In this document: positions 1 through 11,239 of the stretch, one piece after another
How positions within the stretch are numbered: position 1 is the first letter of the stretch
Layout: every line of letters starts with the position of its first letter
From: a virus
Lineage: Duplodnaviria; Heunggongvirae; Uroviricota; Caudoviricetes
DNA length: 11,239 nt
Virus record (IMG/VR): IMGVR_UViG_2740892236_000005
Reading direction: 5' to 3' (one strand)
The notes under the pieces: model-generated
What the model was told of the DNA's origin: nothing
Seen by the model: the letters and a program-made list of their open reading frames with translations, nothing else
Databases searched by the model: none
Position numbers and translations under genes: made by a program

Positions 1-483
1 ATGACGAAGAAAAAAGCACATAAACCTGGTTCAGCGACCATCGCGCTTAACAAGCGCGCCCGTCACGAATACTTTATCGAAGAAGAGTTCGAAGCGGGAC
101 TTGCCCTGCAAGGCTGGGAAGTTAAATCCCTGCGCGCAGGAAAAGCCAATATCAGCGACAGCTACGTCCTTCTGCGTGACGGAGAGGCATTTCTGTTTGG
201 CGCTAACATCACGCCAATGGCCGTGGCCTCCACGCATGTGGTGTGCGATCCTACCCGTACCCGCAAGTTACTTCTCAACCAGCGCGAACTGGACTCATTG
301 TACGGTCGCGTCAATCGAGAAGGCTATACCGTAGTGGCGCTCTCCCTGTACTGGAAAAATGCCTGGTGCAAAGTGAAAATCGGCGTCGCCAAAGGTAAGA
401 AACAGCACGATAAACGTTCAGATATCAAAGAGCGCGAATGGCAGGTGGATAAAGCACGTATCATGAAAAACGCCCACCGTTAA
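1..483 (+). CDS. smpB: SsrA-binding protein SmpB (tmRNA partner in trans-translation)
   Basis: Complete 160-aa ORF ([28 protein letters not shown]...) with TAA stop at 481-483. Length and sequence match enterobacterial SmpB as I recall it, and ssrA lies immediately downstream in the conserved arrangement. Confidence 0.96.
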
Positions 484-697: not shown

Positions 698-1060
698 GGG
701 GCTGATTCTGGATTCGACGGGATTTGCGAAACCCAAGGTGCATGCCGAGGGGCGGTTGGCCTCGTAAAAAGCCGCAAAAAATAGTCGCAAACGACGAAAA
801 CTACGCTTTAGCAGCTTAATAACCTGCTTAGAGCCCTCTCTCCCTAGCCTCCGCTCTTAGGACGGGGATCAAGAGAGGTCAAACCCAAAAGAGATCGCGT
901 GGAAGCCCTGCCTGGGGTTGAAGCGTTAAAACTTAATCAGGCTAGTTTGTTAGTGGCGTGTCCGTCCGCAGCTGGCAAGCGAATGTAAAGACTGACTAAG
1001 CATGTAGTACCGAGGATGTAGGAATTTCGGACGCGGGTTCAACTCCCGCCAGCTCCACCA
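698..1060 (+). ncRNA. ssrA: tmRNA (transfer-messenger RNA, SsrA), 363 nt
   Basis: 5' end GGGGCTGATTCTGGATTCGACGGG at 698, internal tag reading frame, and 3' tRNA-like end GGTTCAACTCCCGCCAGCTCCACCA finishing at 1060. Matches the enterobacterial tmRNA sequence from memory. Confidence 0.95.
787..819 (+). other. tmRNA tag-peptide reading frame (ANDENYALAA plus stop)
   Basis: GCAAACGACGAAAACTACGCTTTAGCAGCTTAA translates to ANDENYALAA followed by a stop, the canonical proteolysis tag encoded within tmRNA. Confidence 0.9.
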
Positions 1061-1183: not shown

Positions 1184-1666
1184 ATGGAAGAACTTCACTT
1201 TGTTTACATCAATGCAAATGGTCGTATCGGTGTTCACTCTATACAGAGCATCAGTTATAGCGAAAATCATATACAGGGCATTTGTAAGAACACCGATCGA
1301 ATAAAAACCTTCCGAAAAGACCGCATTCTTAAACAGTACGATTCACCAGAACAAGCCATTCAGGAGTGCGCGTCATTCCTCCCCGAAAACTACTCACATC
1401 TCACCAAGCAGTCTGGTCCGAAAAAAAATACATTCGATGTGTGTTTCACCGGATTTAAGAAAGCAGATAAAGAAAGATTGGTTGATAAGGCGAATGAACA
1501 AGGATTAACGGTAAGAACCTCTGTAACCCAAAGCCTTCAGATGCTCTGTTGCGGTTACAATGCAGGCCCATCAAAAGTATCGGCAGCCAGGATGAAAGGC
1601 ACAATCATCATAGATGAGCCTGGCTTTATACATTTTCTTGAAACGGGTGAGATCCCAGATGAATAA
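1184..1666 (+). CDS. Prophage accessory (moron) protein: N-terminal WYL-like domain fused to C-terminal BRCT-like domain; function unknown
   Basis: 160-aa ORF with Shine-Dalgarno AAAGAGG at 1171-1177, 6 nt before the ATG. The N-terminal half (VYINANGRIGVHSIQSISYSENHIQGICKNTDRIKTFRKDRI) follows the WYL-domain pattern, with HIQ in the WYL position and the hallmark R-x-F-R-x-D-R-I motif. The C-terminal half (VCFTGFKKADKERLVDKANEQGLTVRTSVTQSLQMLCCGYNAGPSKVSAARMKGTIIIDEPGFIHFL) aligns by eye with the LigA-type BRCT domain. The gene is on the opposite strand to the phage late genes, looks AT-richer than its flanks, and has terminators on both sides. Confidence 0.75.
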   Translation: MEELHFVYINANGRIGVHSIQSISYSENHIQGICKNTDRIKTFRKDRILKQYDSPEQAIQECASFLPENYSHLTKQSGPKKNTFDVCFTGFKKADKERLVDKANEQGLTVRTSVTQSLQMLCCGYNAGPSKVSAARMKGTIIIDEPGFIHFLETGEIPDE

Positions 1667-1692: not shown

Positions 1693-1911
1693 TCAAAAAT
1701 TCATATGCCCCTGACCACCTGGCAATGGATGTGGAGGAGCAGTAGCAATCAGTGCGGGTGTCACAATAAACCGGACCACTGTTTCATGGGTAACAAAAGT
1801 ACTCCCGCAGTTAATATTTTGGCACTGGCAGTAACGCTCTTTGGTGCTTTCAGTTACTTGAAAACTGCTCCTTGTGTGTGCCGCATGACCACACTTTGGA
1901 CAATTCATCAT
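1693..1911 (-). CDS. ogr: Ogr-type zinc-finger late-gene transcription activator
   Basis: Within ORF 1693..1956, translation from the internal ATG at 1911 gives a 72-aa protein MMNCPKCGHAAHTRSSFQVTESTKERYCQCQNINCGSTF... with the C-x2-C ... C-x4-C zinc-finger spacing typical of P2 Ogr / 186 B / P4 Delta. It sits directly downstream of D as in P2. The track's upstream extension begins at a GTG and is probably not translated. Confidence 0.88.
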   Translation of the reverse strand: MMNCPKCGHAAHTRSSFQVTESTKERYCQCQNINCGSTFVTHETVVRFIVTPALIATAPPHPLPGGQGHMNF

Positions 1912-1979
1912 ATCCAGATCCCTACCTTTGCTATCAGAATCATTGTAATGATACACAAAATACCAATATTGAGAACACT

Positions 1980-3080
1980 TTATTCCATTTCAAGATCATC
2001 AATCTTCACTTCGAGTTCAATACTGGTTGTAAAACCGTTATCTGGGCTGACGGTATGTGTCAGAGTCGTAATGGTCCATTCCGCATCATCTATCGGCTGT
2101 TTAAAACCACTGACCTTCACAGGCATTTCCGTGTAGAGATCTGCCCGCCCTTCCGCCAGTTGTAGCGAGAATGACGCAACGCCACGTTGCAGGCGTTCCC
2201 ACTGCATTTTCGCTGCCCGTTCAGCGTTGCTCCGGTTGGCATAAGTGCGATTAAGTACCAGCACGTTTTCATCCGTCCCCACCAGGTAATCGCCCTGCTT
2301 CGCTTCCGGCTCTTTCTTCTGCTTCTTAGTCCTGCGCTTACGCTTCACCGTAGTGCTTTCTTTCTTCGCGGGTTCGCGGGTATGCAACCAGCTGGCAATT
2401 ACCCCCGTGTAAGCTCCGCGATCTGCCAGGGTAAAGCGGTGACTGTCGCCGTCCTTACGTGCGATAGTAATCACCGGCAGTGGTTTACCGCTGGCGCTTT
2501 TGCCCTGTCCCTGCCGGATGAATAACAGATTGCCATTTTTCACCGATGCAATGGCACCGTACTGGCGCGCCAGCCGCATCAAAAAACTGCCGTCACTCTC
2601 ATTAGTCTGGTCTATATGCTCCACGGGCTTATCCGACAGGTCTTTACCCAGTGCCATCTTCAGCTTGTGCCGCGCGGCTATTTCCTTCACCACTTCCCCG
2701 ATGGTGGTGTTATGCCACGATTTTTCACGGCGGGTATTCAGCGTTTCCCGAAAATCAGCACTTCGCGCCCGGATAGTCAGGCGGTCCGGTGCGCCAGTGT
2801 GTTCAATCTCGTCCACCGTGAATGCCCCTTTCGGGAAAAGCGGCTGCCCCTTCCAGCCCAGCGCCAGCGTAATGACCGCACCACGGCGCGGCAGCACGAT
2901 TTTTCCGTCGGCGTCGTCCAGCTCCAGATCAAGCTGGTCCGCTTCAAAGCCCCGGTTATCCGTCAGCGTAAGCCCCATCAGGCGTTTGTCCAGCACAGTG
3001 GTGATATCCTTCCCCTCAATACTGATGCTGAATGCGGGAGTTTTGTTGCCTTTGTTAAGCAGTTCAGAGCTGAAATTCAC
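1980..3080 (-). CDS. D: P2 gpD-like tail protein (late control gene D family)
   Basis: 366-aa ORF in the position and size expected for P2 gpD, last gene of the tail operon before ogr. Its ATG overlaps the U stop (ATGA), indicating translational coupling. Confidence 0.85.
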   Translation of the reverse strand: MNFSSELLNKGNKTPAFSISIEGKDITTVLDKRLMGLTLTDNRGFEADQLDLELDDADGKIVLPRRGAVITLALGWKGQPLFPKGAFTVDEIEHTGAPDRLTIRARSADFRETLNTRREKSWHNTTIGEVVKEIAARHKLKMALGKDLSDKPVEHIDQTNESDGSFLMRLARQYGAIASVKNGNLLFIRQGQGKSASGKPLPVITIARKDGDSHRFTLADRGAYTGVIASWLHTREPAKKESTTVKRKRRTKKQKKEPEAKQGDYLVGTDENVLVLNRTYANRSNAERAAKMQWERLQRGVASFSLQLAEGRADLYTEMPVKVSGFKQPIDDAEWTITTLTHTVSPDNGFTTSIELEVKIDDLEME

Positions 3081-3562
3081 GACAGCAGCCCTCCCACCGT
3101 TTTACTGATATCGCTTAAGGCAGACGTTGCCGTATCCTGCAAATTATTCAGCTGCGCACTGAGATCACCGAACATATCGGACATGGATTCATCCACCCGT
3201 TTGAGCGACAGGGTAAACTCAATCCGGCGCGGCATACCATCGCGGAAAAACTCCGTTTTAGTCTGATTCAGTCCCTCAATCACATACATGCCGTAAATCG
3301 TGCCGCTGCCTTCAATCAGGGGCCATGCTTTTCCCTGTTCTGCCATCTGCTCCAGAGCCAGCAACGACAGCCTGCCGCCCGTTATCTCCGGCATAAGAAC
3401 ACCAGAAAGCGTCAGCATGTCGTTGTCCGGTCCCAGAAATTGCGTGGACGGACGACGGTTTACCCGGCTGTTTTCCGCATGTCGCCAGCTGCGTTGATAC
3501 TGCAGTTCCTGATACGGAACGGTGCGCAGCATAAACACGTACAATCCCAGCACCATCATCAT
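3077..3562 (-). CDS. U: P2 gpU-like tail protein
   Basis: 161-aa ORF between T and D with ATGA overlaps on both sides; size and position match P2 gpU. Confidence 0.85.
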   Translation of the reverse strand: MMMVLGLYVFMLRTVPYQELQYQRSWRHAENSRVNRRPSTQFLGPDNDMLTLSGVLMPEITGGRLSLLALEQMAEQGKAWPLIEGSGTIYGMYVIEGLNQTKTEFFRDGMPRRIEFTLSLKRVDESMSDMFGDLSAQLNNLQDTATSALSDISKTVGGLLS

Positions 3563-6500
3563 GCGTCGTATCCCCCCTGATCGCTGTAGTTACTCCTGGC
3601 TTTTGCCTTCAGCCTGCGTTCACGTTCATCAAGCTGGCGTGCCACCTCCCGCGCAATATCCTGCGCACTTTGTCCTGGCTGCGTCTGAATGATGATCTGC
3701 GTCGGTGCCTCAATCCGGTGAACGGGCGGTACAGTAGCTGCACGACTCACCATCGCTTCGCCGCCTTTCGCGGGAAGTGCCAAAGGATGCAATGGTGGAA
3801 GCTCTGCAGGCGCGGCAGCAACGCCCATCATTCCGGCAACAACGGCAGCCAGTGCAGCTGTATTTCTCCGGCTGGTCACATTTGCCGGGCCGTTAACAAT
3901 TTCCGGCCCGTTTTCACCGACGATGCCAAACTGCCCGCGCGGGATATAGCCGCCGCTGTCATACATCCCCGCAAAGCCATATCCCCATGACGGAAAACCA
4001 CCCGGTGGCATCATCACTTTACCGTCTGCATTCACCGTCGCAGGTTGCTGACGCGTCACGCTTTCCGGCAGTTTCGCCTTTGCAGCCTCTTTACTGACAA
4101 TGCCGAGTTTCTCCAGCAACCAGGAAACGCCGGATTTCAGGGAGTCCAGCGGATGCATGACCATATTCAGCCCTTCCGCCAGTGCCTCCCCGAATCGTCG
4201 CCCCATTGCCGCTGCACTCTGCAGTTCGGCAGAGGTCGACTTAACGGGCGTCAGCAGATCAGTAAACCAGCCCCACAGCGCCTGTACTTTGTCGCCAATC
4301 CACTGGAACACGGGCTTAAGCGGTTCGAATGCTGCACTGACGGGACCTGCCGCCGCTTTGAATCCTTCCACTACGCCACCAAGAAATGCGGTGATGGGTT
4401 GCCAGTATTTCCAGACAACCAGCGCCACGCCCGCCAGTGCAGTAACCACAAGACCTATCGGACTGAGCAGAGCACCTAACAGACCAGATACGGCATACAG
4501 GGCAACGCGCAGCATCGCCAGTGGACCAGATGCCAGTACTCGCAGCACCGTGCCTGCGGAGGCCAGTCCACCGCGCAGTACCGCCAGAGGATTCATAAAC
4601 ATCACAGCAACAGCACGTAAACCGGATAATCCAGACCGCAAAAGTGCAACCGGCGCACCTGCTACAGTTTTCAGGACATTTCCCGTCAGTGATGCCGTGC
4701 GGCGCAAAGACGACAACGGCGCAGTAAGTAAACCTGCGGCGTTGCCCGATGAAGCAAGCCCGCGTCGCAGCAGTGCAAGTGGTGCGCCAGCCAACCAGGA
4801 CAACGCGCTGCTGGTTCGCGTTACTGCTGCCGTAACGGAAGGTAACGTTTTGATACCCAGCACAGAGAATCCCAGACGGATGACTGCCAGCGGCCCCAGC
4901 ACAGCAGCCAACACCACAGCCAGGGTGCCGAGGCCCACAGTAACAGCAGCCACAACCGCGGCTACTTTCATCAGTGTGCCCGTCAGTTCAGGGTTAGCTT
5001 CTACCCAGCGACGCAACGCCCCCGTGATGCTTTTCACCGTGTACAGAATATCCATCAGCGGCTGGCGCAGCGTTTCGCCCAGGCTGCTGAAGGTGTTCTG
5101 CGCTCCGGTTTTGACCAGCAACCACTGCGCAGAAAGTGAGTCCTTGTTAATGTCGGATTCTTTCTGCATCGAACCGAGCGCATCATTGCCCGCTGTCAGT
5201 TTTAGCTGGCGCTGCAGTTCCGGCAGGTTGTTTGCCAGTTTCGCCGCATCATCGCCAAACTCTTTACCAAACAACATGGTCATGGCAGACAGGCGCTTAT
5301 CCTGCGGCAGTGCGTTCACCTTCTCCAGTACGCGCTGGATAGTTCCCATCGCATCCTTCGTCATCTGCTTTTCAATCACTTCAGGATTGAGTTTCAGCAG
5401 ATTCATTCCTTCAAAGAAACTCTTGCTTTGCATGGTCGCAATGGACAATTCACGCACCATCGCGTTGGCAGCACTGGCAGCGACCTCCGGCGCAGCCCCC
5501 AGTGTCAGGAAGGTGGAACCCAGCGCCGCCGCTTTACGATAATCCAGACGATCAGCCACACCGCCCAGGCGTTGCATGACATCAATGATGTCTGCCCCTT
5601 TCGACATAGCGTTATCATCCAGATAGTTCAGCGCATCACCGAGCTGTTCAATATTGCGGGTTGGTATTTTGTAGAGCTGGGCGATTTTCCCCAGACTTTC
5701 TGACAGTTCATCCGCTGGCAGCTCAAAGGCTGTTGCCGCCTTTGCTGCCGTACTGGCGAAGGCCAGCAGGTCACGTTTCTGGTCCTCCCAGCTGTCGTCA
5801 GGGTTTGCCACATTCATGCGCGCACCACCTTCAACCAGTGCGGCGAAGTCCACAGCACCGTTTTCCATTGGCAGCTGTTCACTGGCAGCTTTGATGGCAT
5901 CCTGCATTTCGTAAAAACGCGCAGTGCGGTTGCCATTATCGTCACGCAGACCATTGACCTGCTTTGCCACACCTTTCATGGCATCTTCCATGCTGGTATA
6001 GCTTTTTACCGCCGCCATCACTGGCGCGCCCATTGCCAGCCCTGCAGCCGTGGTGGTGGCTCCGGCTCCTGCGATGCGATCGCGCACTTCAAGCCGTCTT
6101 GAGTATTGTTCTCTGGCAGCGTTCATCCGTGCCTGTTGTTCACCCAGACGTTTAAGTGCTTTTTGCTGGCCCTCCAGTGCATGACGAGTTTCTTCGGCAT
6201 TTTTCTTAAGTTCTCGCTGGGCACTACTGAGTTGTCTGGTATCAATCCCTGATTCTTTAAGTGCCTGACGTTGTCTCTGGACCGCCCCCAACAAGCCGTT
6301 ATAGGTCTGCTGAAGTTCCTGTACTCGTGTTTTGGCCTGACTGAATAACTTTGCCTGCGCGGCGGTTGGCCTGTTAGTGGCAGCAAATTGTGTGGCGAGT
6401 TTTGCCGCCTCTTCGCGGGCTGCGTTCAGGTTGTTGGCTGTTATGGCTAGTTGCGAGCGCGTCTTGCGAAATTCATCAATTCTGCCAGCCTGCTTATTCA

Positions 6501-6636
6501 GTTCTTTGAGGCTGTTTCGGGTATTCTGAATTGCGCCAGCCAGCTCTTTCGAACTGGCCTGTGCAGCACGGAATGGGCGGGTGAGTTTGTCAACCGCATT
6601 AAGAATGACCTGCAGGCGCAGGTTATTATCACTCAT
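3559..6636 (-). CDS. T: Tail tape-measure protein (P2 gpT-like), 1025 aa
   Basis: Very long ORF with a coiled-coil-like, Ala/Gln/Lys-rich N-terminal region and a central run of hydrophobic Gly/Ala/Leu repeats (...GAPLALLRRGLASSG...GAPVALLRSGLSGLRAV...PLAVLRGGLASAGTVLRVLASGPLAMLRV...), typical of tape-measure proteins. Located between E/E' and U as in P2. Confidence 0.9.
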   Translation of the reverse strand: MSDNNLRLQVILNAVDKLTRPFRAAQASSKELAGAIQNTRNSLKELNKQAGRIDEFRKTRSQLAITANNLNAAREEAAKLATQFAATNRPTAAQAKLFSQAKTRVQELQQTYNGLLGAVQRQRQALKESGIDTRQLSSAQRELKKNAEETRHALEGQQKALKRLGEQQARMNAAREQYSRRLEVRDRIAGAGATTTAAGLAMGAPVMAAVKSYTSMEDAMKGVAKQVNGLRDDNGNRTARFYEMQDAIKAASEQLPMENGAVDFAALVEGGARMNVANPDDSWEDQKRDLLAFASTAAKAATAFELPADELSESLGKIAQLYKIPTRNIEQLGDALNYLDDNAMSKGADIIDVMQRLGGVADRLDYRKAAALGSTFLTLGAAPEVAASAANAMVRELSIATMQSKSFFEGMNLLKLNPEVIEKQMTKDAMGTIQRVLEKVNALPQDKRLSAMTMLFGKEFGDDAAKLANNLPELQRQLKLTAGNDALGSMQKESDINKDSLSAQWLLVKTGAQNTFSSLGETLRQPLMDILYTVKSITGALRRWVEANPELTGTLMKVAAVVAAVTVGLGTLAVVLAAVLGPLAVIRLGFSVLGIKTLPSVTAAVTRTSSALSWLAGAPLALLRRGLASSGNAAGLLTAPLSSLRRTASLTGNVLKTVAGAPVALLRSGLSGLRAVAVMFMNPLAVLRGGLASAGTVLRVLASGPLAMLRVALYAVSGLLGALLSPIGLVVTALAGVALVVWKYWQPITAFLGGVVEGFKAAAGPVSAAFEPLKPVFQWIGDKVQALWGWFTDLLTPVKSTSAELQSAAAMGRRFGEALAEGLNMVMHPLDSLKSGVSWLLEKLGIVSKEAAKAKLPESVTRQQPATVNADGKVMMPPGGFPSWGYGFAGMYDSGGYIPRGQFGIVGENGPEIVNGPANVTSRRNTAALAAVVAGMMGVAAAPAELPPLHPLALPAKGGEAMVSRAATVPPVHRIEAPTQIIIQTQPGQSAQDIAREVARQLDERERRLKAKARSNYSDQGGYDA

Positions 6637-7065
6637 CGTTGGCCCCGCTTCTCTGAATCGCTTTATACCGCCATTCCAGCACTTCGGTCAGCGGCATAAC
6701 GTCAGTAACGGATGGCGGCCAGTGAAAGATGGTGGCGATATCAGCCACCAGATCGTCAACCGTCAGGCTGTCGGTAAACCGGCAAGCACCGACTTCTTCA
6801 ACAAAAAAGTGACAACCTCAACCGACATGGCAGTGAGATCTGCCGGGTCCATCTCTACAATTTCCTGTGCAGTCAGTGCCGGACTGGAGATGCGGGGGAT
6901 CACGGTCATCATCGCGTTCACATCCATATCCATAATGGCCTGCAGGCGCGTACCGCGCAGCGCACCGGACTGCGGTTTACGCAGCACAATTTCGGTGATT
7001 TCTGTTTTACCGCGCTTGATGGGGGTATCCAGTTGAATAGTCTTTTCAGTCTGCTTATCGCTCAT
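6629..7065 (-). CDS. E+E' fusion product made by programmed -1 ribosomal frameshift (tail assembly chaperone, long form, about 145 aa)
   Basis: Hand translation from the slippery heptamer T-TTT-TTG (minus strand, 6808-6802) in the -1 frame gives an open extension ...VEEVGACRFTDSLTVDDLVADIATIFHWPPSVTDVMPLTEVLEWRYKAIQRSGANDE ending at TGA 6631-6629. That stop overlaps the T start codon (6636-6634), the same geometry as P2 E/E'. Confidence 0.7.
6763..7065 (-). CDS. E: P2 gpE-like tail assembly chaperone (short form)
   Basis: 100-aa ORF (MSDKQTEKTIQLDTPIKRGKTEITEIVLRKP...VTFLLKKSVLAGLPTA) between FII and T. The slippery heptamer lies near its 3' end. Confidence 0.88.
   Translation of the reverse strand: MSDKQTEKTIQLDTPIKRGKTEITEIVLRKPQSGALRGTRLQAIMDMDVNAMMTVIPRISSPALTAQEIVEMDPADLTAMSVEVVTFLLKKSVLAGLPTA
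6802..6808 (-). promoter_or_regulatory. Slippery heptamer T-TTT-TTG for the E/E' -1 frameshift
   Basis: Plus strand CAAAAAA at 6802-6808 is minus-strand TTTTTTG, read in the E frame as ACT-TTT-TTG (T-F-L). Same heptamer class as reported for P2 E/E' and many tail-chaperone frameshifts. Confidence 0.7.
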
Positions 7066-7119
7066 TTTGCTGTCCTGTAAATTGGGTTCTGGCGCGGTAT
7101 CCCGCGCCGTTCAGATACA

Positions 7120-7635
7120 TCAGAGGCCGAGGGCGTTGCGGTGCGCTTCCATCAGGTCCACACCGTCCACAATTTCCACCATGTTGATAAGGTCCACTTC
7201 ATAGAGCACCTCACCATTGATGGTCAGCTTCGCGTAGCTGTTGGTACTGGTCACTTTGGTGGTGTTGCTTTCGCCCGTCTTCCACTCGCCGGAATCCACT
7301 TCTTTGTGACGTCCACGCACGACAAGCTCCACGGCCTGCACTTCCCCGGTATCGTCACGCTGAATAGAGCCGGTAAAGCGCAGCTGGATGCCATCCACCG
7401 TGGCTTTACCCATCTGTTTAAACAGCAGCAATTCAGTACCACCAATGGAAAATTCTGTGTCCAGCGCACTGTCATCAAGCCCCAGATCCACATCCACCGC
7501 ACCCGGCATTCCGCCGCCGCGATACTTCTCATATTTGCGGGTAAATTTCGGCAGCGTCAGCGACTCAACGATCCCCTGCCAGTTGTTCCCGTCGTTAAAC
7601 AGGTTCAGGTGTTTTAATTTGCGTGGTAAAGCCAT
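7120..7635 (-). CDS. FII: Tail tube protein (P2 gpFII-like)
   Basis: 171-aa ORF immediately downstream of the sheath gene, with size and position as for P2 FII. Confidence 0.88.
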   Translation of the reverse strand: MALPRKLKHLNLFNDGNNWQGIVESLTLPKFTRKYEKYRGGGMPGAVDVDLGLDDSALDTEFSIGGTELLLFKQMGKATVDGIQLRFTGSIQRDDTGEVQAVELVVRGRHKEVDSGEWKTGESNTTKVTSTNSYAKLTINGEVLYEVDLINMVEIVDGVDLMEAHRNALGL

Positions 7636-7644
7636 GTTGTCCCC

Positions 7645-8817
7645 TTACGCGCTGACCTGGCTGGCGAAATTCACCAGGTACTGATCGGTGATGCGCTGAC
7701 GCAGCATCAGGTTTTCAAGTGGCGGCACTGGCGTGTAGTCGTAGTCGATGGTGAGTTTTCCGGCTTTCAGCGTGTCTTTGTCGTTCACCGACTCATCCAG
7801 CCAGCAATCACCACCAATGAGATAGCCCTGACTGACCAGGCTGCGCATTTTGGCGCGGATACCTTCGATAATGTCGCGGGCCAGCGACGGGTTAAGCGGT
7901 TTATCCACCGCCCACATGTGTGCTTCTGCCATCGTGTCCATCAGCACCTGAGCCGTGCGGGTGTAGTTTTCGAAGGCAAAGAGCGGGTCATCACTCAGGC
8001 AGCGGGAACCCCAGAAGCGGAAACCGTCTTTACGCACAAGCGTGGTGACGTCGTTCTGGTTCAGCAGACCTGCATCGGTTGCCGGGTCCTGCAGATCCCA
8101 GAACACATCTGCAGAAATTCCGGTGACACCGTTCACGCCCACGTTGGACAGGCTTTTGTGCCATCCGGTCTGCTCGTCAATTTTGGCGCGCAGACCAAGC
8201 GCACGGGCGGTAGCATATGCCGTTGCTTCGGCATTCAGCACCGTGTCCCAGCCAGTAAAGTCAGGCCAGATCAGCATCCCTTCGCGCTGGCTGAAGTTTT
8301 CGCGGTAAGTGATCGCCTCCTGCACTGTCTTGCAGCCATACGCTGACAGGTAAGCAAATCCACGCAGGCTTTGCGCCACGCTCAGCAACTCAGTAGCTAC
8401 CGCCTTGGTGTCGTGGCCTGGCACGCCGAGAATGCGCGGTTTAACGCCGAGCTGTGACTGGGCAGATAACAGGGCTTTCATACCTGTTTTTTTACCTTCA
8501 GCAGTCACTGCGCCGATGATATTGGTCGTGGTTTCGTCTTCCGTTTCACCCTGCGGCACACGCACAACAATGGTCACGGGTTTTGCCTGGTCAGCGATGG
8601 CATCCAGCGAACGGGCCAGAGTACCTGACTCACCCGCTTTACCGCTGGCAGTCAGCACATCAGTGATCAGCACGGGTTTATTAAGAGGAAACATTTTTGC
8701 ATCGGCATCATCGCCCGTGCAGACCATACCCACGATGGCGGTGCTCACCGTGGTAATAGATCGGGTGCCTTCGTTGACTTCAACAACGCGCACCCCGTGG
8801 TGGTAATCCTGAGCCAT
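7645..8817 (-). CDS. FI: Contractile tail sheath protein (P2 gpFI-like)
   Basis: 390-aa ORF, first gene of the FI-FII-E-T-U-D operon, preceded by a strong Shine-Dalgarno (AGGAGG, minus strand) and the late promoter dyad. Confidence 0.9.
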
Positions 8818-8894
8818 AGTGGCGAACCTCCTGATTGGATTAGGCTTCGCCCTATGTTGAAGTGATTGTGCCTGACAAACAGCTAAGCGCAGTT

Positions 8895-8912
8895 GTGTCG
8901 TTATTCACACAA
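8895..8912 (-). promoter_or_regulatory. P2-type late promoter element upstream of FI: TGT-N12-ACA dyad (Ogr/Delta activator binding site)
   Basis: TGTGTCGTTATTCACACA at 8895-8912 is TGT + 12 nt + ACA, centred about 86 bp upstream of the FI ATG. The TGT-N12-ACA dyad centred near -55 is the conserved activator site of P2/P4/186 late promoters. The -10 was not pinned down. Confidence 0.6.
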
Positions 8913-8959
8913 AATAACGGTATTTGTCTGCTTGCAGGGATAATCAACATAATGCTGAT

Positions 8960-9526
8960 TCAGGGGGATTCATTGATCTTATTTGCCGGAAATTTTCTAT
9001 AAATGGTAGAAACGCCTACATCAAAAATCAGTGCAATACGCTGTCTTGATTCTCCGGCCTCGAGTAAACGCCCAATCTGTGCCCACTGTTCGGTGGTCAA
9101 CTTAGGACGGCGTCCACCTACTCTGCCTTTGGCACGAGCTGCAGCCAGCCCTGCCCTGGTACGTTCAACTATCAGTTCGCGTTCCATTTCAGCCAGGGCA
9201 CCCATGACATGAAAAAAGAAACGGCCCATTGGGGTACTGGTATCAATACTGTCAGTCAGGCTTCTGAAATTCACACCACGCTGGCGCAACTCTTCTATCA
9301 GCGTAACAAGATGTCGCATACTGCGCCCCAACCTGTCCAGCTTCCAGACAACCAGCGTGTCTCCTGCCGATAGTGTCCTGAGTAGTTTTTTCAGCCCCGG
9401 TCTGTCGGACTTAGTGCCACTGATTTTGTCCTCAAAAATCCGCTCACATCCCGCGCAGTTCAGTGCATTACGTTGCAAATCGGTGTTCTGGTCATTTGTT
9501 GACACGCGTACATAGCCAATAAGCAT
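8960..9526 (-). CDS. Serine DNA invertase, Gin/Pin/Cin/Hin family
   Basis: Translation MLIGYVRVSTNDQNTDLQRNALNCAGCERIFEDKISG...LVVWKLDRLGRSM...GRRPKL...STIYRKF has the invertase N-terminal catalytic motif (YVRVST, active-site Ser) and a C-terminal HTH, and is very close to Pin/Gin-type invertases as I remember them. The Shine-Dalgarno AGGGGG is positioned for the second ATG (9526), giving 188 aa; the ORF track starts two codons earlier at 9532. Confidence 0.9.
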   Translation of the reverse strand: MLIGYVRVSTNDQNTDLQRNALNCAGCERIFEDKISGTKSDRPGLKKLLRTLSAGDTLVVWKLDRLGRSMRHLVTLIEELRQRGVNFRSLTDSIDTSTPMGRFFFHVMGALAEMERELIVERTRAGLAAARAKGRVGGRRPKLTTEQWAQIGRLLEAGESRQRIALIFDVGVSTIYRKFPANKINESP

Positions 9527-9581
9527 GATCATCCCCCTGAATAAAAACCGGAGATGATGCCAGTTAGCTGTTACCTCTGCA

Positions 9582-9607
9582 TTTTCTTAAACGTTGGTTT
9601 GGGAGAA
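9582..9607. other. Left recombination (crossover) site of the invertible segment, gix/hix/cix-like
   Basis: TTTTCTTAAACG-TT-GGTTTGGGAGAA is an imperfect 12-2-12 palindrome. Its right half matches the gix right half GGTTTTGGATAA (recalled from memory) at 10 of 12 positions. The inner 13 bp GGTTTGGGAGAAG (9596-9608) recur as an exact inverted copy at 11227-11239. Confidence 0.65.
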
Positions 9608-9949
9608 GCGGCAAAAAGGGATGTTGGGATTGGGGCAAATCAGATCCCTGATATGAGCAAATGGACATCGCTGAAAGCAGATTACGGGTGGCGGTTGACT
9701 CCAGATGGATTTCTGGAGCAATGGGGGCGCGGTAATTATGGAAACGGCGATGGAGATTTTGTCATCCCATTCCCGAACCGTTGTGCGTTCGTTTTAATTA
9801 GCTCGGATCCGAATGACACGTCATATGCCGAGATTTCACAGGCATTCCCTGTCAGCAACTCAAAATTCAGGGTTGGCTGCGCAACGGCAGAGGGTAATAA
9901 CGTTAATCCGGCAAATTTGACATGTAACTGGTATGCGAAGGGATGGTGA
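9594..9949 (+). CDS. Silent alternative tail-fibre C-terminal cassette (Hv'), promoterless in this orientation
   Basis: The frame is open through the crossover site (ggt ttg gga gaa = GLGE) and continues AAKRDVGIGANQIPDMSKW...NWYAKGW to a TGA at 9947-9949. It is in the same codon phase relative to the 13-bp repeat as the expressed fibre on the other side, so inversion would fuse it in frame to the constant fibre N-terminus. The track's ATG at 9554 is probably not a real start. Confidence 0.6.
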
Positions 9950-9951
9950 TA

Positions 9952-10155
9952 ATGAATATTTACTTTTATAGCGCGTCAACGAATCAATTTTACCCGACAG
10001 TGTTACTCGACGCATACCGTGGAAATGGCGTTTTGCCTGATGATATTAAGCCCGTCGATGACGATATGGCTCTGAAGTTTTTAGGGGCTCCTCCGGAGGG
10101 AATGAAACGAGCGGCGGGTAGCAATGGGCTACCCACGTGGGTAATGGTAAGCTAG
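9952..10155 (+). CDS. Short (about 67-70 aa) tail-fibre assembly protein N-terminal domain (Tfa'), possibly a truncated remnant
   Basis: MNIYFYSASTNQFYPTVLLDAYRGNGVLPDDIKPVDDDMALKFLGAPPEGMKRAAGSNGLPTWV matches the conserved N-terminus of one tail-fibre assembly family, but the frame stops at TAG 10153-10155 without the usual C-terminal half. An alternative ATG lies at 9943. Confidence 0.55.
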   Translation: MNIYFYSASTNQFYPTVLLDAYRGNGVLPDDIKPVDDDMALKFLGAPPEGMKRAAGSNGLPTWVMVS

Positions 10156-10769
10156 ACGTACAGTTCAGGCCAACTGATATCCGGTGCGGTGCTGGTATCA
10201 GTTGCCGTCACCGCGTCAATGTAATCCAGCACGACGTTAAGCCGGGTGGTTTCTGTCTGCGTCAGTTTTCGCCCGGCCTGCAATTTCAACTGAATCAGAT
10301 TAATGGAAGCCATTGCAGTATCAATCAGCGACTGGCGTTGTGTTTTTGCCGCTTCTACAGCGGCACGATGTTGCGCATCTGTATCGGTCACCCATTTCTC
10401 ACCATCCCATTCATCGTATGGCGTTAACGGTGCGACAGTGGTTGTGTTTTCAGGGTAATCACCCGGAGTGGTGATTTCTGCTGCCTCACGGGTTTCTGTG
10501 TTATAGACTGTCTCACCCCGATGGTCCGGCACGTACTCCCACGTGGTCAGGTCAGCAGTGCGGCAAATCACATAACCAGACCGCCTTTCCCCGGGGGCAT
10601 CAGTGCATGAATGTGCAGGAAGGCCAACGCCTACAGCCAGATATTCGGTTGACGTGTAAAGGTATTCCCGCGTCTTATTATCGTAGCTGTGGACAACAAC
10701 CTCTCCTGCAACTGTTGCCAGCCGCGATTCATTCAGCACCGCTGTAGTCATGGTTTTCTTGCTCATCAT
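10152..10769 (-). CDS. Tail-fibre assembly protein (Tfa, lambda-Tfa-like; positional equivalent of P2 G), expressed orientation
   Basis: 205-aa ORF whose C-terminus (...RLNVVLDYIDAVTATDTSTAPDISWPELYV) matches the conserved Tfa C-terminal motif (VDTSTAPDIEWP in lambda Tfa). Its start overlaps the fibre gene stop (ATGA). Confidence 0.85.
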   Translation of the reverse strand: MMSKKTMTTAVLNESRLATVAGEVVVHSYDNKTREYLYTSTEYLAVGVGLPAHSCTDAPGERRSGYVICRTADLTTWEYVPDHRGETVYNTETREAAEITTPGDYPENTTTVAPLTPYDEWDGEKWVTDTDAQHRAAVEAAKTQRQSLIDTAMASINLIQLKLQAGRKLTQTETTRLNVVLDYIDAVTATDTSTAPDISWPELYV

Positions 10770-11239
10770 GCAGCCCTTACGATGTAGTTAAATGCAATGT
10801 TACGTGGCCTTGCATAACCCAGATACTGAATCCCCCAGGCTCCCACTGGAACGGGGTTCCAGATATGTTCTGTAGGTATACTTTTCGCTCTGAGAATATC
10901 TGAATTGGTTTCAGTTTTATCCCATCCCAGCAGGGCAATGTCGTTTACCGAAAACTGCACCACGCTGTCGGGTGATATATTGGCTTCCTGAACCAGATAA
11001 GAGCCTTTTTGCCACGACAACAACGTCCGGCTACTGTCCACTCCGCGCCCGTCATCCCAGCCACGAATAAATTCACCACGTAAATCAGGCAATATATTTG
11101 TCGGATAAGCCTTTGCCAGTTCCGGGTATTCTTCAGCAGAAAATGCCGCCCCGTTGCATTTCACCCAGCCTGTTGGCGGTGTGGCTGAAGGCCACGGAAC
11201 AGGTACACCAACGGGTAATGCAGAGCCTTCTCCCAAACC
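10766..11239 (-). CDS. Tail fibre protein, variable C-terminal receptor-binding part (expressed orientation); 5' part of the gene lies beyond the window
   Basis: The frame runs to the window edge (GLGEGSALPVGVPVPWPSATPPTGWVKCNGAAFSAEEYPELAKAYP...NYIVRAA), with the PWP...GW..C.G...YP motif seen in many tail-fibre C-terminal domains (P2 H, Mu S). The track's start at 11236 is a window-edge artefact. Confidence 0.8.
   Translation of the reverse strand, partial: GLGEGSALPVGVPVPWPSATPPTGWVKCNGAAFSAEEYPELAKAYPTNILPDLRGEFIRGWDDGRGVDSSRTLLSWQKGSYLVQEANISPDSVVQFSVNDIALLGWDKTETNSDILRAKSIPTEHIWNPVPVGAWGIQYLGYARPRNIAFNYIVRAA
11227..11239. other. Right recombination (crossover) site of the invertible segment, inner half only (truncated by window end)
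   Basis: Plus-strand CTTCTCCCAAACC at 11227-11239 is the exact reverse complement of GGTTTGGGAGAAG at 9596-9608. The core and outer half must lie just past position 11239. Confidence 0.6.

Follow-up and report, generated by a model that had tools for sequence, protein, structure and literature searches.

Serine DNA invertases of the Din family are about 185-195 amino acids long. Their N-terminal resolvase domain is catalytic, with the active-site serine at about residue 9-10, and their C-terminus is an HTH. The invertase genes of Mu, P1 and Hin also contain, in their 5' part, a Fis-dependent enhancer that acts in cis. Phages of the Fels-2/SopE-phi type integrate at ssrA. Inversion of fibre segments has been documented in several prophages. 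In the e14 element, whose invertase is PinE and whose pix repeat is AAACCTTGGTTTGGGAGAAGG, it was detected by whole-genome sequencing (WGS) and PCR (PMC4272514 Table S1), and both orientations of a P2-like locus of enteropathogenic Escherichia coli (EPEC) E2348/69 were found by WGS/PCR in single-colony cultures, with 93% in the forward state (PMC4272514). In the Salmonella prophage Fels-2, an inversion next to fin between strains LT2 and LT7 is reported to swap the C-termini of the fibre (PMC7953296). When the P segment of e14 is inverted by PinQ, the chimeric protein StfE2 is reported to block the adsorption of other phages (PMC12529663).

The locus studied here lies at the right-hand end of what we call the window, the whole stretch of 11,239 nucleotides of viral DNA that was analysed. 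We consider it very likely to be an invertible tail-fibre segment, belonging to a P2/186-like prophage that adjoins ssrA, in which a Gin-like invertase swaps the fibre tips. A preliminary description of this DNA had proposed a Mu G-segment-type switch on a P2-type tail, and the invertase, the sites, the reading frame and the tail module all proved to be as it had read them. The features are as follows.

1693-8817, minus strand: P2-type late tail module, from Pfam matches, comprising ogr (1693-1956), D (1980-3080), U (3077-3562), tape measure (3559-6636), E (6763-7065), tube FII (7120-7635) and sheath FI (7645-8817)
8960-9526, minus strand: serine DNA invertase of the Din family; with the RefSeq start it has 188 aa, and the ORF runs on to 9532
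9437-9508, minus strand: putative recombinational (Fis) enhancer stretch, homologous to the enhancer annotated inside P1 cin
9582-9607, plus strand: left crossover site, proximal to the invertase, consisting of TTTTCTTAAACG (outer half), TT (2-bp core) and GGTTTGGGAGAA (inner half)
9596-9949, plus strand: silent alternative fibre C-terminus, 117 codons (GLGEAAKRDVG...AKGW) and a stop; Pfam Gp53-like_C (PF21882), 4.2e-11
9952-10155, plus strand: short Tfa-like protein, partner of the silent tip, 67 aa, or 70 aa from the ATG at 9943
10152-10769, minus strand: tail-fibre assembly protein of the expressed cassette, a 205-aa ORF, or 199 aa with the RefSeq start (10751)
10766-11239, minus strand: variable C-terminal part of fibre protein H, in the expressed state, 157 codons counted from GLGE; Pfam Collar (PF07484), 1.5e-14
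11228-11239, minus strand: inner half of the right crossover site; its core and outer half (TTCTCACATACC-TT, minus strand) are at 11240-11253, past the window

Pfam matches run along the tail module in the order Phage_sheath_1, Phage_tube, Phage_TAC_7, PhageMin_Tail, Phage_P2_GpU, Phage_GPD and Ogr_Delta. Domains for sheath, tube, E, tape measure, U, D and ogr were all found, as befits the P2-type tail that had been proposed, and the module matches the P2-like (Peduoviridae) gene order H-G-(insert)-FI-FII-E/E'-T-U-D-ogr. For the bases past 11239 we used an E. coli chromosome, NZ_AP045820.1, which is 99.9% identical to the window over 8900-11239. This chromosome has a 33-kb P2/186-like prophage adjoining ssrA that is apparently complete, with no pseudogenes flagged.

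The gene beside the segment, which had been assigned to the Gin/Pin family, codes for a protein with the Pfam domains Resolvase (2.3e-53) and HTH_7 (1.5e-15). In amino acid sequence it shares 74% identity with Mu Gin, 77% with P1 Cin and 78% with the invertase of the EPEC P2-like locus, and it aligns end to end with the Gin structures 3uj3 and 4m6f (E = 1.2e-92 for 3uj3). The ORF is intact, with the catalytic serine kept in MLIGYVRVSTNDQ (VRVSTNDQ), and is transcribed away from the invertible segment, like Mu gin. The putative enhancer stretch at 9437-9508 is identical at 56 of 72 positions (78%) to the enhancer feature of NC_005856, compared to 70% identity over the gene's first 540 nt, though constraint on the coding sequence could account for its conservation. 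It lies 86.5-157.5 bp from the centre of the crossover site; in Mu gin the equivalent stretch is nearer to gixR by about 1 bp. A promoter scan of the interval 8800-11239 found promoter-like sites at background level, and a terminator scan of the same interval found six terminator-like sites (about 2.3 expected) and pointed to nothing.

The sequence GGTTTGGGAGAAG is present at 9596-9608 on the plus strand, and its exact reverse complement at 11227-11239 on the minus strand, so both copies of the 13-bp inverted repeat in the preliminary description are exact and on the strands it gave; no further copy was found in the window with up to 2 mismatches allowed. The left copy had been placed in an imperfect 12-2-12 palindrome, and we find this palindrome at 9582-9607, with a TT core and half-sites that match at 8 of 12 positions. 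The window had also been thought to end inside the right site, and it does in fact stop exactly where the inner half-site gives way to the core: extension into NZ_AP045820.1 gave the core and outer half beyond 11239, and with these bases the full site reads TTCTCACATACC-TT-GGTTTGGGAGAA on the minus strand. Both sites are thus of the 12-2-12 form, in inverted orientation, with an identical TT core when read from the outer to the inner half. Their outer half-sites, TTTTCTTAAACG and TTCTCACATACC, depart from the gix/cix consensus TTATCCAAAACC, and P1 cixL departs from it equally.

A 19-nt degenerate site pattern occurs exactly twice, compared to 0.04 occurrences expected, and the pattern TTGGTTTRRGAGAA has exactly two inverted matches per locus in the loci L001-L004 and L010, and also matches the annotated cixL and cixR of P1. 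Searching the 10-kb locus with up to 3 mismatches allowed, we found exactly two crossover sites and no third, and there is no extra AAACCNNGGTTT-like site inside the invertible segment. Having two sites only, the locus is not a multi-site shufflon, which would have at least three. Exact inverted repeats of at least 13 nt are themselves common at this scale: the window has about eight independent ones, and 79% of shuffled sequences have at least one. The case for the switch therefore rests not on the 13-bp repeat alone but on its context, namely the position of the sites, their agreement with cix/pix sites already known, and the breakpoints from genome comparison described below. In view of the same background, we treated as chance a perfect 14-nt inverted repeat (9604-9617 and 10343-10356), one copy of which reaches into the left site at its inner edge. 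It has only 4 nt in common with the half-site, and EAAK is encoded by both its copies.

The GGT of the repeat is in phase both with the plus-strand ORF at 9554-9949 and with the minus-strand fibre coding sequence, so GLGE is read in the same codon phase in both copies, as had been described. The 350-codon constant part of H lies beyond the end of the window. In a near-identical genome the fibre coding sequence starts 1050 nt (350 codons) upstream of GLGE, which places the constant region in frame with it, a point on which the preliminary description had made its proposal depend. The complete coding sequence (507 aa; L002 5867-7390, minus strand) crosses the right site in frame and ends in the Collar tip. 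Because the right site is inside H, and both inner half-sites encode GLGE in one frame, each orientation swaps the tip in frame; inversion would bring in the plus-strand tip, as had been predicted, as an in-frame fusion giving a 467-aa fibre with a Gp53-like_C end. The two C-termini had been called unrelated, and they are: one is a Collar domain on the minus strand and the other a Gp53-like_C domain on the plus strand. It is the minus-strand Collar tip that the present orientation expresses, again in agreement with the earlier reading, together with its 205-aa chaperone, which matches Pfam Caudo_TAP (1.1e-30) and has the annotation 'tail fiber assembly protein' in NZ_AP045820.1. The stop of this ORF shares the sequence CTAG with the convergent 67-aa ORF. 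The annotated ORF at 9554-9949 is the silent tip plus 14 codons from outside the segment. The silent tip is rare, adjoining an invertase in three genomes and having one lambdoid copy; in L003 it is 100% identical in nucleotide sequence and is joined to a lambdoid side-tail-fibre gene. For a flipped copy of this exact pair of cassettes, a query with the flipped right junction gave no full-length match, with 0 records at 80% coverage or more.

We propose that dimers of the invertase bind the two inverted 26-bp sites (9582-9607, and from 11228 to 14 bp past the window) and would cut them at the central TT, after which the 1.65-kb segment between them would rotate. The reaction probably depends on Fis from the host, bound at an enhancer within the invertase gene, in its 5' part. 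The 350-aa constant part would stay the same in either orientation and be fused to one tip or the other, followed by the assembly gene of that tip: a Collar-type tip with the 205-aa Tfa in the current state, and a Gp53-like_C tip with the 67-aa short Tfa-like protein in the flipped state. We infer that the segment does invert in this strain and that the tips differ in the receptor they recognise, in which case a lysogen culture would release particles with two adsorption specificities.

The partner of the silent tip is a protein of only 67-70 aa and not a full-length Tfa, which is a property of the locus that the preliminary description did not mention. The 67-aa protein is 37-39% identical to residues 1 to about 65 of Tfa proteins of 147 aa, and so corresponds to the N-terminal half of Tfa, the variable part that binds the fibre, without the conserved C-terminal region. 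Its suggested link to the N-domain of Mu Tfa is by alignment to these longer Tfa proteins only. An AlphaFold model of it is of moderate quality (pLDDT 73), a Foldseek search of the PDB with this model gave no match below E = 1, and no PDB sequence was matched in a profile search.

Our first reading of the 67-aa ORF was as a decayed Tfa. If the gene were a truncated remnant, inversion could occur and yet only the current orientation would give functional fibres. The short protein does contrast in size with the range of about 147-205 aa of other Tfa proteins, and its ORF has six non-synonymous and four synonymous codon changes relative to L003. The region it lacks is the conserved C-terminal Tfa domain, for which PMC9608196, citing work on Mu Tfa, proposes a role in driving trimerisation of the fibre, so with such a chaperone the flipped state might assemble poorly. 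However, the 67-70-aa form is found in six clusters (73-99% identity) from E. coli and Citrobacter; 38 positions are invariant and the length is kept down to 73-75% identity, and in L009 it is located directly 3' of an expressed Gp53-like_C fibre gene. Conservation of length and frame across genera would not survive decay, which weakens the first reading and makes a switch with a single productive orientation unlikely in our judgement. Because its length is conserved across genera, the short form is probably functional. Together with the expressed example in L009, this conservation raises the possibility, which we put forward tentatively and do not favour, that it is a minimal chaperone or a retained adaptor working without the canonical Tfa C-domain. 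If true, this would alter the present view of Tfa action, and the conserved partner is the sole point of some interest at this locus.

We also considered whether the architecture of the segment has been kept while the switch itself is dead, the invertase being silent or the sites too degenerate, so that differences in orientation are old events or exchanges of cassettes by homologous recombination. Both of the genomes that are near-identical to the window (23CRST047 and 23CRST049) have the same orientation as it does, the outer half-sites are imperfect, and horizontal exchange of cassettes is clear from the occurrence of the same tip on a lambdoid fibre. The synthetic flipped left junction, on the other hand, is contiguous in 924 E. 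coli genomes, and in L004 (the prophage of E. coli TW10690) a homologous segment, about 77-93% identical to the window's, lies on the opposite strand between flanks that are 99.4% and 100% identical. The change of strand is located at 9591-9608 and 11227-11241, which is exactly at the sites. Since, in addition, the invertase ORF is unbroken and keeps the catalytic serine, and the left site is identical to an EPEC site that inverts with a 78%-identical invertase, we regard a dead switch as quite improbable.

Another reading accepts the inversion but has it serve the bacterium, wholly or in part, through a chimeric fibre protein that blocks the adsorption of other phages. An effect of this sort has been shown for e14 (PMC12529663), which shares the TTGGTTTGGGAGAAG core in its pix repeat, but here the prophage is apparently complete, with its fibre gene in an intact late operon, so a classical role in host range suffices and a benefit to the host seems very improbable. 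Lastly, however common exact inverted repeats of this length may be, there is next to no likelihood that the 13-bp repeat is a functionless match, a reading that the comparative sequence data already refute, because it falls where the constant and variable parts of the fibre gene meet, in identical frame, beside a Gin-like invertase, at sites that match cix/pix and are kept as exactly two, inverted, in every related locus.

An in-frame switch of fibre tips at this locus has practical consequences. The 131-aa 'gp53-like domain-containing protein' reported by annotation pipelines is a promoterless alternative C-terminus of the fibre and not a separate gene. Short-read assemblies of such lysogens can collapse or be mis-joined at the locus, and a host range predicted from the assembled orientation takes in only one of two possible tips. 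The switch is of the known Mu/P1/e14 type and is not new, having already been shown by experiment in related prophages; it introduces no new principle, since the mechanism, the site sequence and the occurrence on P2-like prophages are all documented.

For comparison of the sites, the gix sequences of Mu and the cix sequences of P1 were taken from reference phage records. The layout is that of the Mu G segment: the constant part of the fibre, a site, a tip with its Tfa, a convergent Tfa' and tip', a second site, and an invertase gene that reads outward. In both phages the site is in the reading frame of the fibre, in the same phase (...NLGLQE in Mu, ...YLGLGE here), the invertases are 74% identical, and the distance from the enhancer-equivalent stretch to the nearest site agrees to within about 1 bp. 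Mu differs in having a TC core in place of TT, an inner half-site that matches at 9 of 12 positions, and a segment of about 3 kb instead of 1.65 kb. The virion module here is P2-type, the Collar and Gp53-like_C tips are unrelated to Mu Sv and Sv', and one of the chaperones is the 67-aa short form. The P1 C segment is similar to our locus in its TT core, its 12-2-12 sites and its inner half-site GGTTTRRGAGAA (10 of 12 matches), as well as in Cin (77% identity) and the enhancer-annotated stretch (78%), but in P1 the cin gene reads towards the segment, the enhancer is about 0.5 kb from cixL, and the C segment is 4.2 kb long.

Among prophage elements, e14 of E. coli K-12 has a pix repeat that contains the window's 15-nt core TTGGTTTGGGAGAAG exactly, and this core is also in the EPEC repeats. 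Unlike the apparently complete P2-like prophage here, e14 is a defective lambdoid element in which fragments of stfE and ycfK are fused. The EPEC locus (NC_011601 2977580-2979467) has the same order of tip, Tfa, Tfa', gp53-like tip', invertase, sheath and tube, its invertase-proximal repeat is identical to the window's left site over 33 nt, and its cassettes are 75-94% identical to the window's where they can be aligned. It differs in being a prophage remnant, in which the constant part of the fibre is missing and an integrase fragment abuts the site, and in having a full-length Tfa' (146 aa). Switches of the shufflon type, such as Min of p15B and a three-repeat P2-like locus of EPEC, have at least three sites, compared to two here. 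The Salmonella prophages of the Fels-2/SopE-phi type, which we set beside our locus by their description, are likewise members of the P2 family with an invertase gene adjoining the tail-fibre genes, and likewise integrate at ssrA, as in the window's prophage. The closest phage record is Escherichia phage 500465-1 (Peduoviridae, Wadgaonvirus), which is 99.3% identical over the invertase and left site and has the same architecture with an annotated DNA invertase, but has a different silent tip (42% amino acid identity) and a full-length Tfa' of 147 aa.

The element is a two-site, frame-preserving tail-fibre switch of the Mu G type on a P2-like prophage, and the preliminary description was correct in both observation and interpretation. 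Switches of this kind are already well known, P2-like prophages included. Active inversion in the window's strain, and a difference in host range between orientations, are inferred. Of the features listed next, those from ogr to sheath come from the ORF map and Pfam scans.

1-483, plus strand, smpB
698-1060, plus strand, tmRNA gene ssrA (tag ANDENYALAA)
1693-1956, minus strand, ogr
1980-3080, minus strand, D
3077-3562, minus strand, U
3559-6636, minus strand, tape measure
6763-7065, minus strand, E
7120-7635, minus strand, tube
7645-8817, minus strand, sheath
8960-9532, minus strand, recombinase (Pfam Resolvase and HTH_7)
9554-9949, plus strand, ORF with a fibre tip at its end (Pfam Gp53-like_C)
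9943-10155, plus strand, 70-aa ORF (no Pfam match)
10152-10769, minus strand, assembly protein, Tfa (Pfam Caudo_TAP)
10766-11239, minus strand, fibre C-terminus, open at the window end (Pfam Collar domain)

The 13-mer GGTTTGGGAGAAG lies on the plus strand at 9596-9608 and its exact reverse complement at 11227-11239, with no further copy in the window at up to two mismatches. The window has roughly eight independent inverted repeats that are exact over 13 nt or more, and 79% of shuffled windows contain at least one; the 13-bp repeat alone is no more than chance would give, and its significance comes from its context. A megablast search with 8900-11239 recovered two E. coli chromosomes that are 99.9% identical over the full length, and we read the bases past the window end from one of them, NZ_AP045820.1 (strain 23CRST047; window coordinate = L002 + 4899, where L002 is our locus from that chromosome). 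From outside to inside, the left site (9582-9607) is TTTTCTTAAACG-TT-GGTTTGGGAGAA and the right site is TTCTCACATACC-TT-GGTTTGGGAGAA, its outer part coming from NZ_AP045820.1. The two are therefore inverted 26-bp sites of 12-2-12 layout, with the same TT core and the same inner half. The window ends precisely between the core and inner half-site of the right site, and the core and outer half-site that the preliminary description expected past 11239 are both present in NZ_AP045820.1. Scanned with a 19-nt degenerate site pattern, the 10-kb locus gives exactly two hits (0.04 expected); no third crossover site was found in it.

Another perfect inverted repeat, the 14-nt AGAAGCGGCAAAAA (9604-9617 and 10343-10356), straddles the left site's inner edge with one copy and has the other within the expressed tfa; both copies encode EAAK. 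It could be the trace of an old rearrangement, but we judge it to be chance, since exact inverted repeats abound in the window.

The repeat preserves the reading frame on both strands, as had been proposed. The fibre gene annotated in L002 (5867-7390, minus strand, 507 aa) runs through the right site, with the GGT of the repeat as codon 351 (...LLTYL-GLGE-GSALPVGVP...), and on the plus strand the repeat shares its phase with the Gp53-like ORF. Simulated inversion gives an unbroken 467-aa protein, ...LLTYL-GLGE-AAKRDVGIGANQIPDM...AKGW. What is called as a 131-aa ORF (9554-9949) is thus an alternative C-terminus without a promoter, with 14 codons from beyond the segment joined to its front fortuitously. 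Annotation pipelines call it a 'gp53-like domain-containing protein' starting at the ATG at 9554; most likely this is an ORF-calling artefact of the silent cassette and not a separate gene. Codons 1-14 (MMPVSCYLCIFLNV, 9554-9595) fall in the stretch from the invertase gene to the site, and Escherichia phage 500465-1 has the identical codons.

Relatives of the window are found in both orientations. E. coli TW10690 carries a P2-like prophage (L004) whose flanks match the window at 99.4% identity on the sheath and invertase side and at 100% in the fibre constant part. Relative to these flanks, the interior of its homologous segment aligns to the opposite strand, and the strand changes over at the crossover sites (9591-9608 and 11227-11241). 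When a flipped left junction was built in silico from the invertase 5' end, the left site and the Collar tip, 924 of the 5426 complete E. coli genomes had it contiguous at 80% coverage or more; the observed left junction with the window's own Gp53-like tip is in only 3. Sequencing by Goldberg et al. (PMC4272514) detected both orientations side by side in e14 and likewise in two EPEC E2348/69 prophages of P2-like type; for e14 and the three-repeat P2-like locus they state that PCR confirmed this. The e14 repeat in their Table S1, AAACCTTGGTTTGGGAGAAGG, contains the window's core sequence. Their two-repeat P2-like locus (NC_011601 2977580-2979467) has the window's gene order, an invertase-proximal site identical to the window's over 33 nt, and an invertase 78% identical to the window's. 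The Fels-2 fibre region beside fin is likewise reported to be inverted between Salmonella LT2 and LT7 (PMC7953296).

The silent tip is followed by an ORF of 67 aa (9952-10155; 70 aa from an upstream ATG), which aligns to just the first ~65 residues of the 147-aa assembly proteins at the same position in phage 500465-1 and TW10690 and lacks their conserved C-terminal region. A summary of the work on Mu Tfa (PMC9608196) assigns fibre binding to the variable N-terminal domain and trimerisation to the conserved C-terminal one. A protein search with the 67-aa ORF gave six clusters, every one of 67-70 aa and 73-99% identical, which besides E. coli cover Citrobacter youngae and C. braakii. Aligning the window ORF with five of the cluster representatives (six sequences) leaves 38 positions invariant. 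The short ORF is in the equivalent silent position in a Citrobacter prophage (L007, 5001-5204), and directly follows an expressed fibre gene ending in Gp53-like_C in a metagenome P2-like prophage (L009, 5001-5204). Our first reading, a truncated Tfa, is weakened by these length-constant clusters and placements. Because its length is kept across genera, the sequence comparisons argue for a working short partner, of putative function, and not for decay. These proteins adjoin a Gp53-like tip cassette in the loci examined. They matched no Pfam domain; the AlphaFold model of the 67-aa protein is of moderate confidence (pLDDT 73) and no solved structure resembling the protein was matched. If the short protein does serve the Gp53-like tip, it would do so with no canonical Tfa C-domain.

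The sequence CTAG at 10152-10155 supplies a TAG stop on each strand for the two convergent assembly genes, and thus the cassettes are joined without a spacer, compared with a 28-bp gap in Mu and a 29-bp overlap in phage 500465-1. A 14-bp perfect palindrome, TACCCACGTGGGTA, lies shortly ahead of it (10130-10143).

In E. coli MARGA_3 (NZ_CM170101.1; L003 3498-5835), the silent-tip cassette also occurs in a lambdoid prophage: it is attached to the side-tail-fibre gene that follows gpJ and lom, its neighbouring invertase is a different one (52% identity), and its orientation relative to the fibre constant part is the opposite one. Nucleotide identity to the window is 100% over 9594-9975, the silent tip included; in the 67-aa gene, 6 codon changes are non-synonymous and 4 are synonymous, too few to decide. 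The MARGA_3 genome holds the cassette in a P2-like prophage too. The cassette has clearly been exchanged between lambdoid and P2-like prophages. The L009 segment (4638-7304; sites 4638-4656 and 7286-7304) includes a 358-aa Acyl_transf_3 gene (5555-6631), probably surface-modifying cargo, which lies inside the segment and therefore would change orientation with the fibre switch.

The late tail module is P2-type and on the minus strand. Because smpB and the tmRNA gene precede the prophage end, the element abuts ssrA, where Fels-2/SopE-phi-type phages integrate too. Between ssrA and ogr, a 160-aa ORF (1184-1666, plus strand) has a weak BRCT match and the RefSeq name 'BRCT domain-containing protein', and probably represents prophage cargo. 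In 23CRST047 the 33-kb P2/186-like prophage looks complete, bounded by ssrA and ypjA, with integrase, CI, CII, replication endonuclease, portal, terminase, capsid, lysis, baseplate and tail genes and no pseudogene flags. The nearest phage record is 500465-1 (Peduoviridae, Wadgaonvirus), with a DNA invertase annotated at the same place.

We retrieved the Mu and P1 reference records and extracted the gix and cix sites from their sequence:

Mu gix: outer half TTATCCAAAACC, core TC, inner half GGTTTACAGGAA
P1 cixR: outer half TTATCCAATACC, core TT, inner half GGTTTAAGAGAA
P1 cixL: outer half CAATCCTAAACC, core TT, inner half GGTTTAAGAGAA

The window's sites share with P1 cix the layout, the TT core and 10 of the 12 inner half-site bases. 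The pattern TTGGTTTRRGAGAA matches the annotated cixL and cixR, and in each of the related loci L001-L004 and L010 (five in all) its hits are two inverted positions and no others; a relaxed form gives the same result in the Citrobacter and metagenome relatives. Within the invertase gene, a stretch matching the enhancer annotated in P1 cin (56 of 72 identical) lies 86.5-157.5 bp from the site centre, ~1 bp more distant than its Mu equivalent. It is a candidate recombinational enhancer, consistent but unproven because the stretch is coding sequence, which confounds its conservation. The invertase is of the Gin family, as the preliminary description had it, with 74% identity to Gin and 77% to Cin; its alignment to the Gin crystal structures covers the full length (E = 1e-92), and it has the catalytic serine. 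Gene order and invertase orientation equal those of Mu, where the site is translated as ...NLGLQE, in the same phase as the window's YLGLGE.
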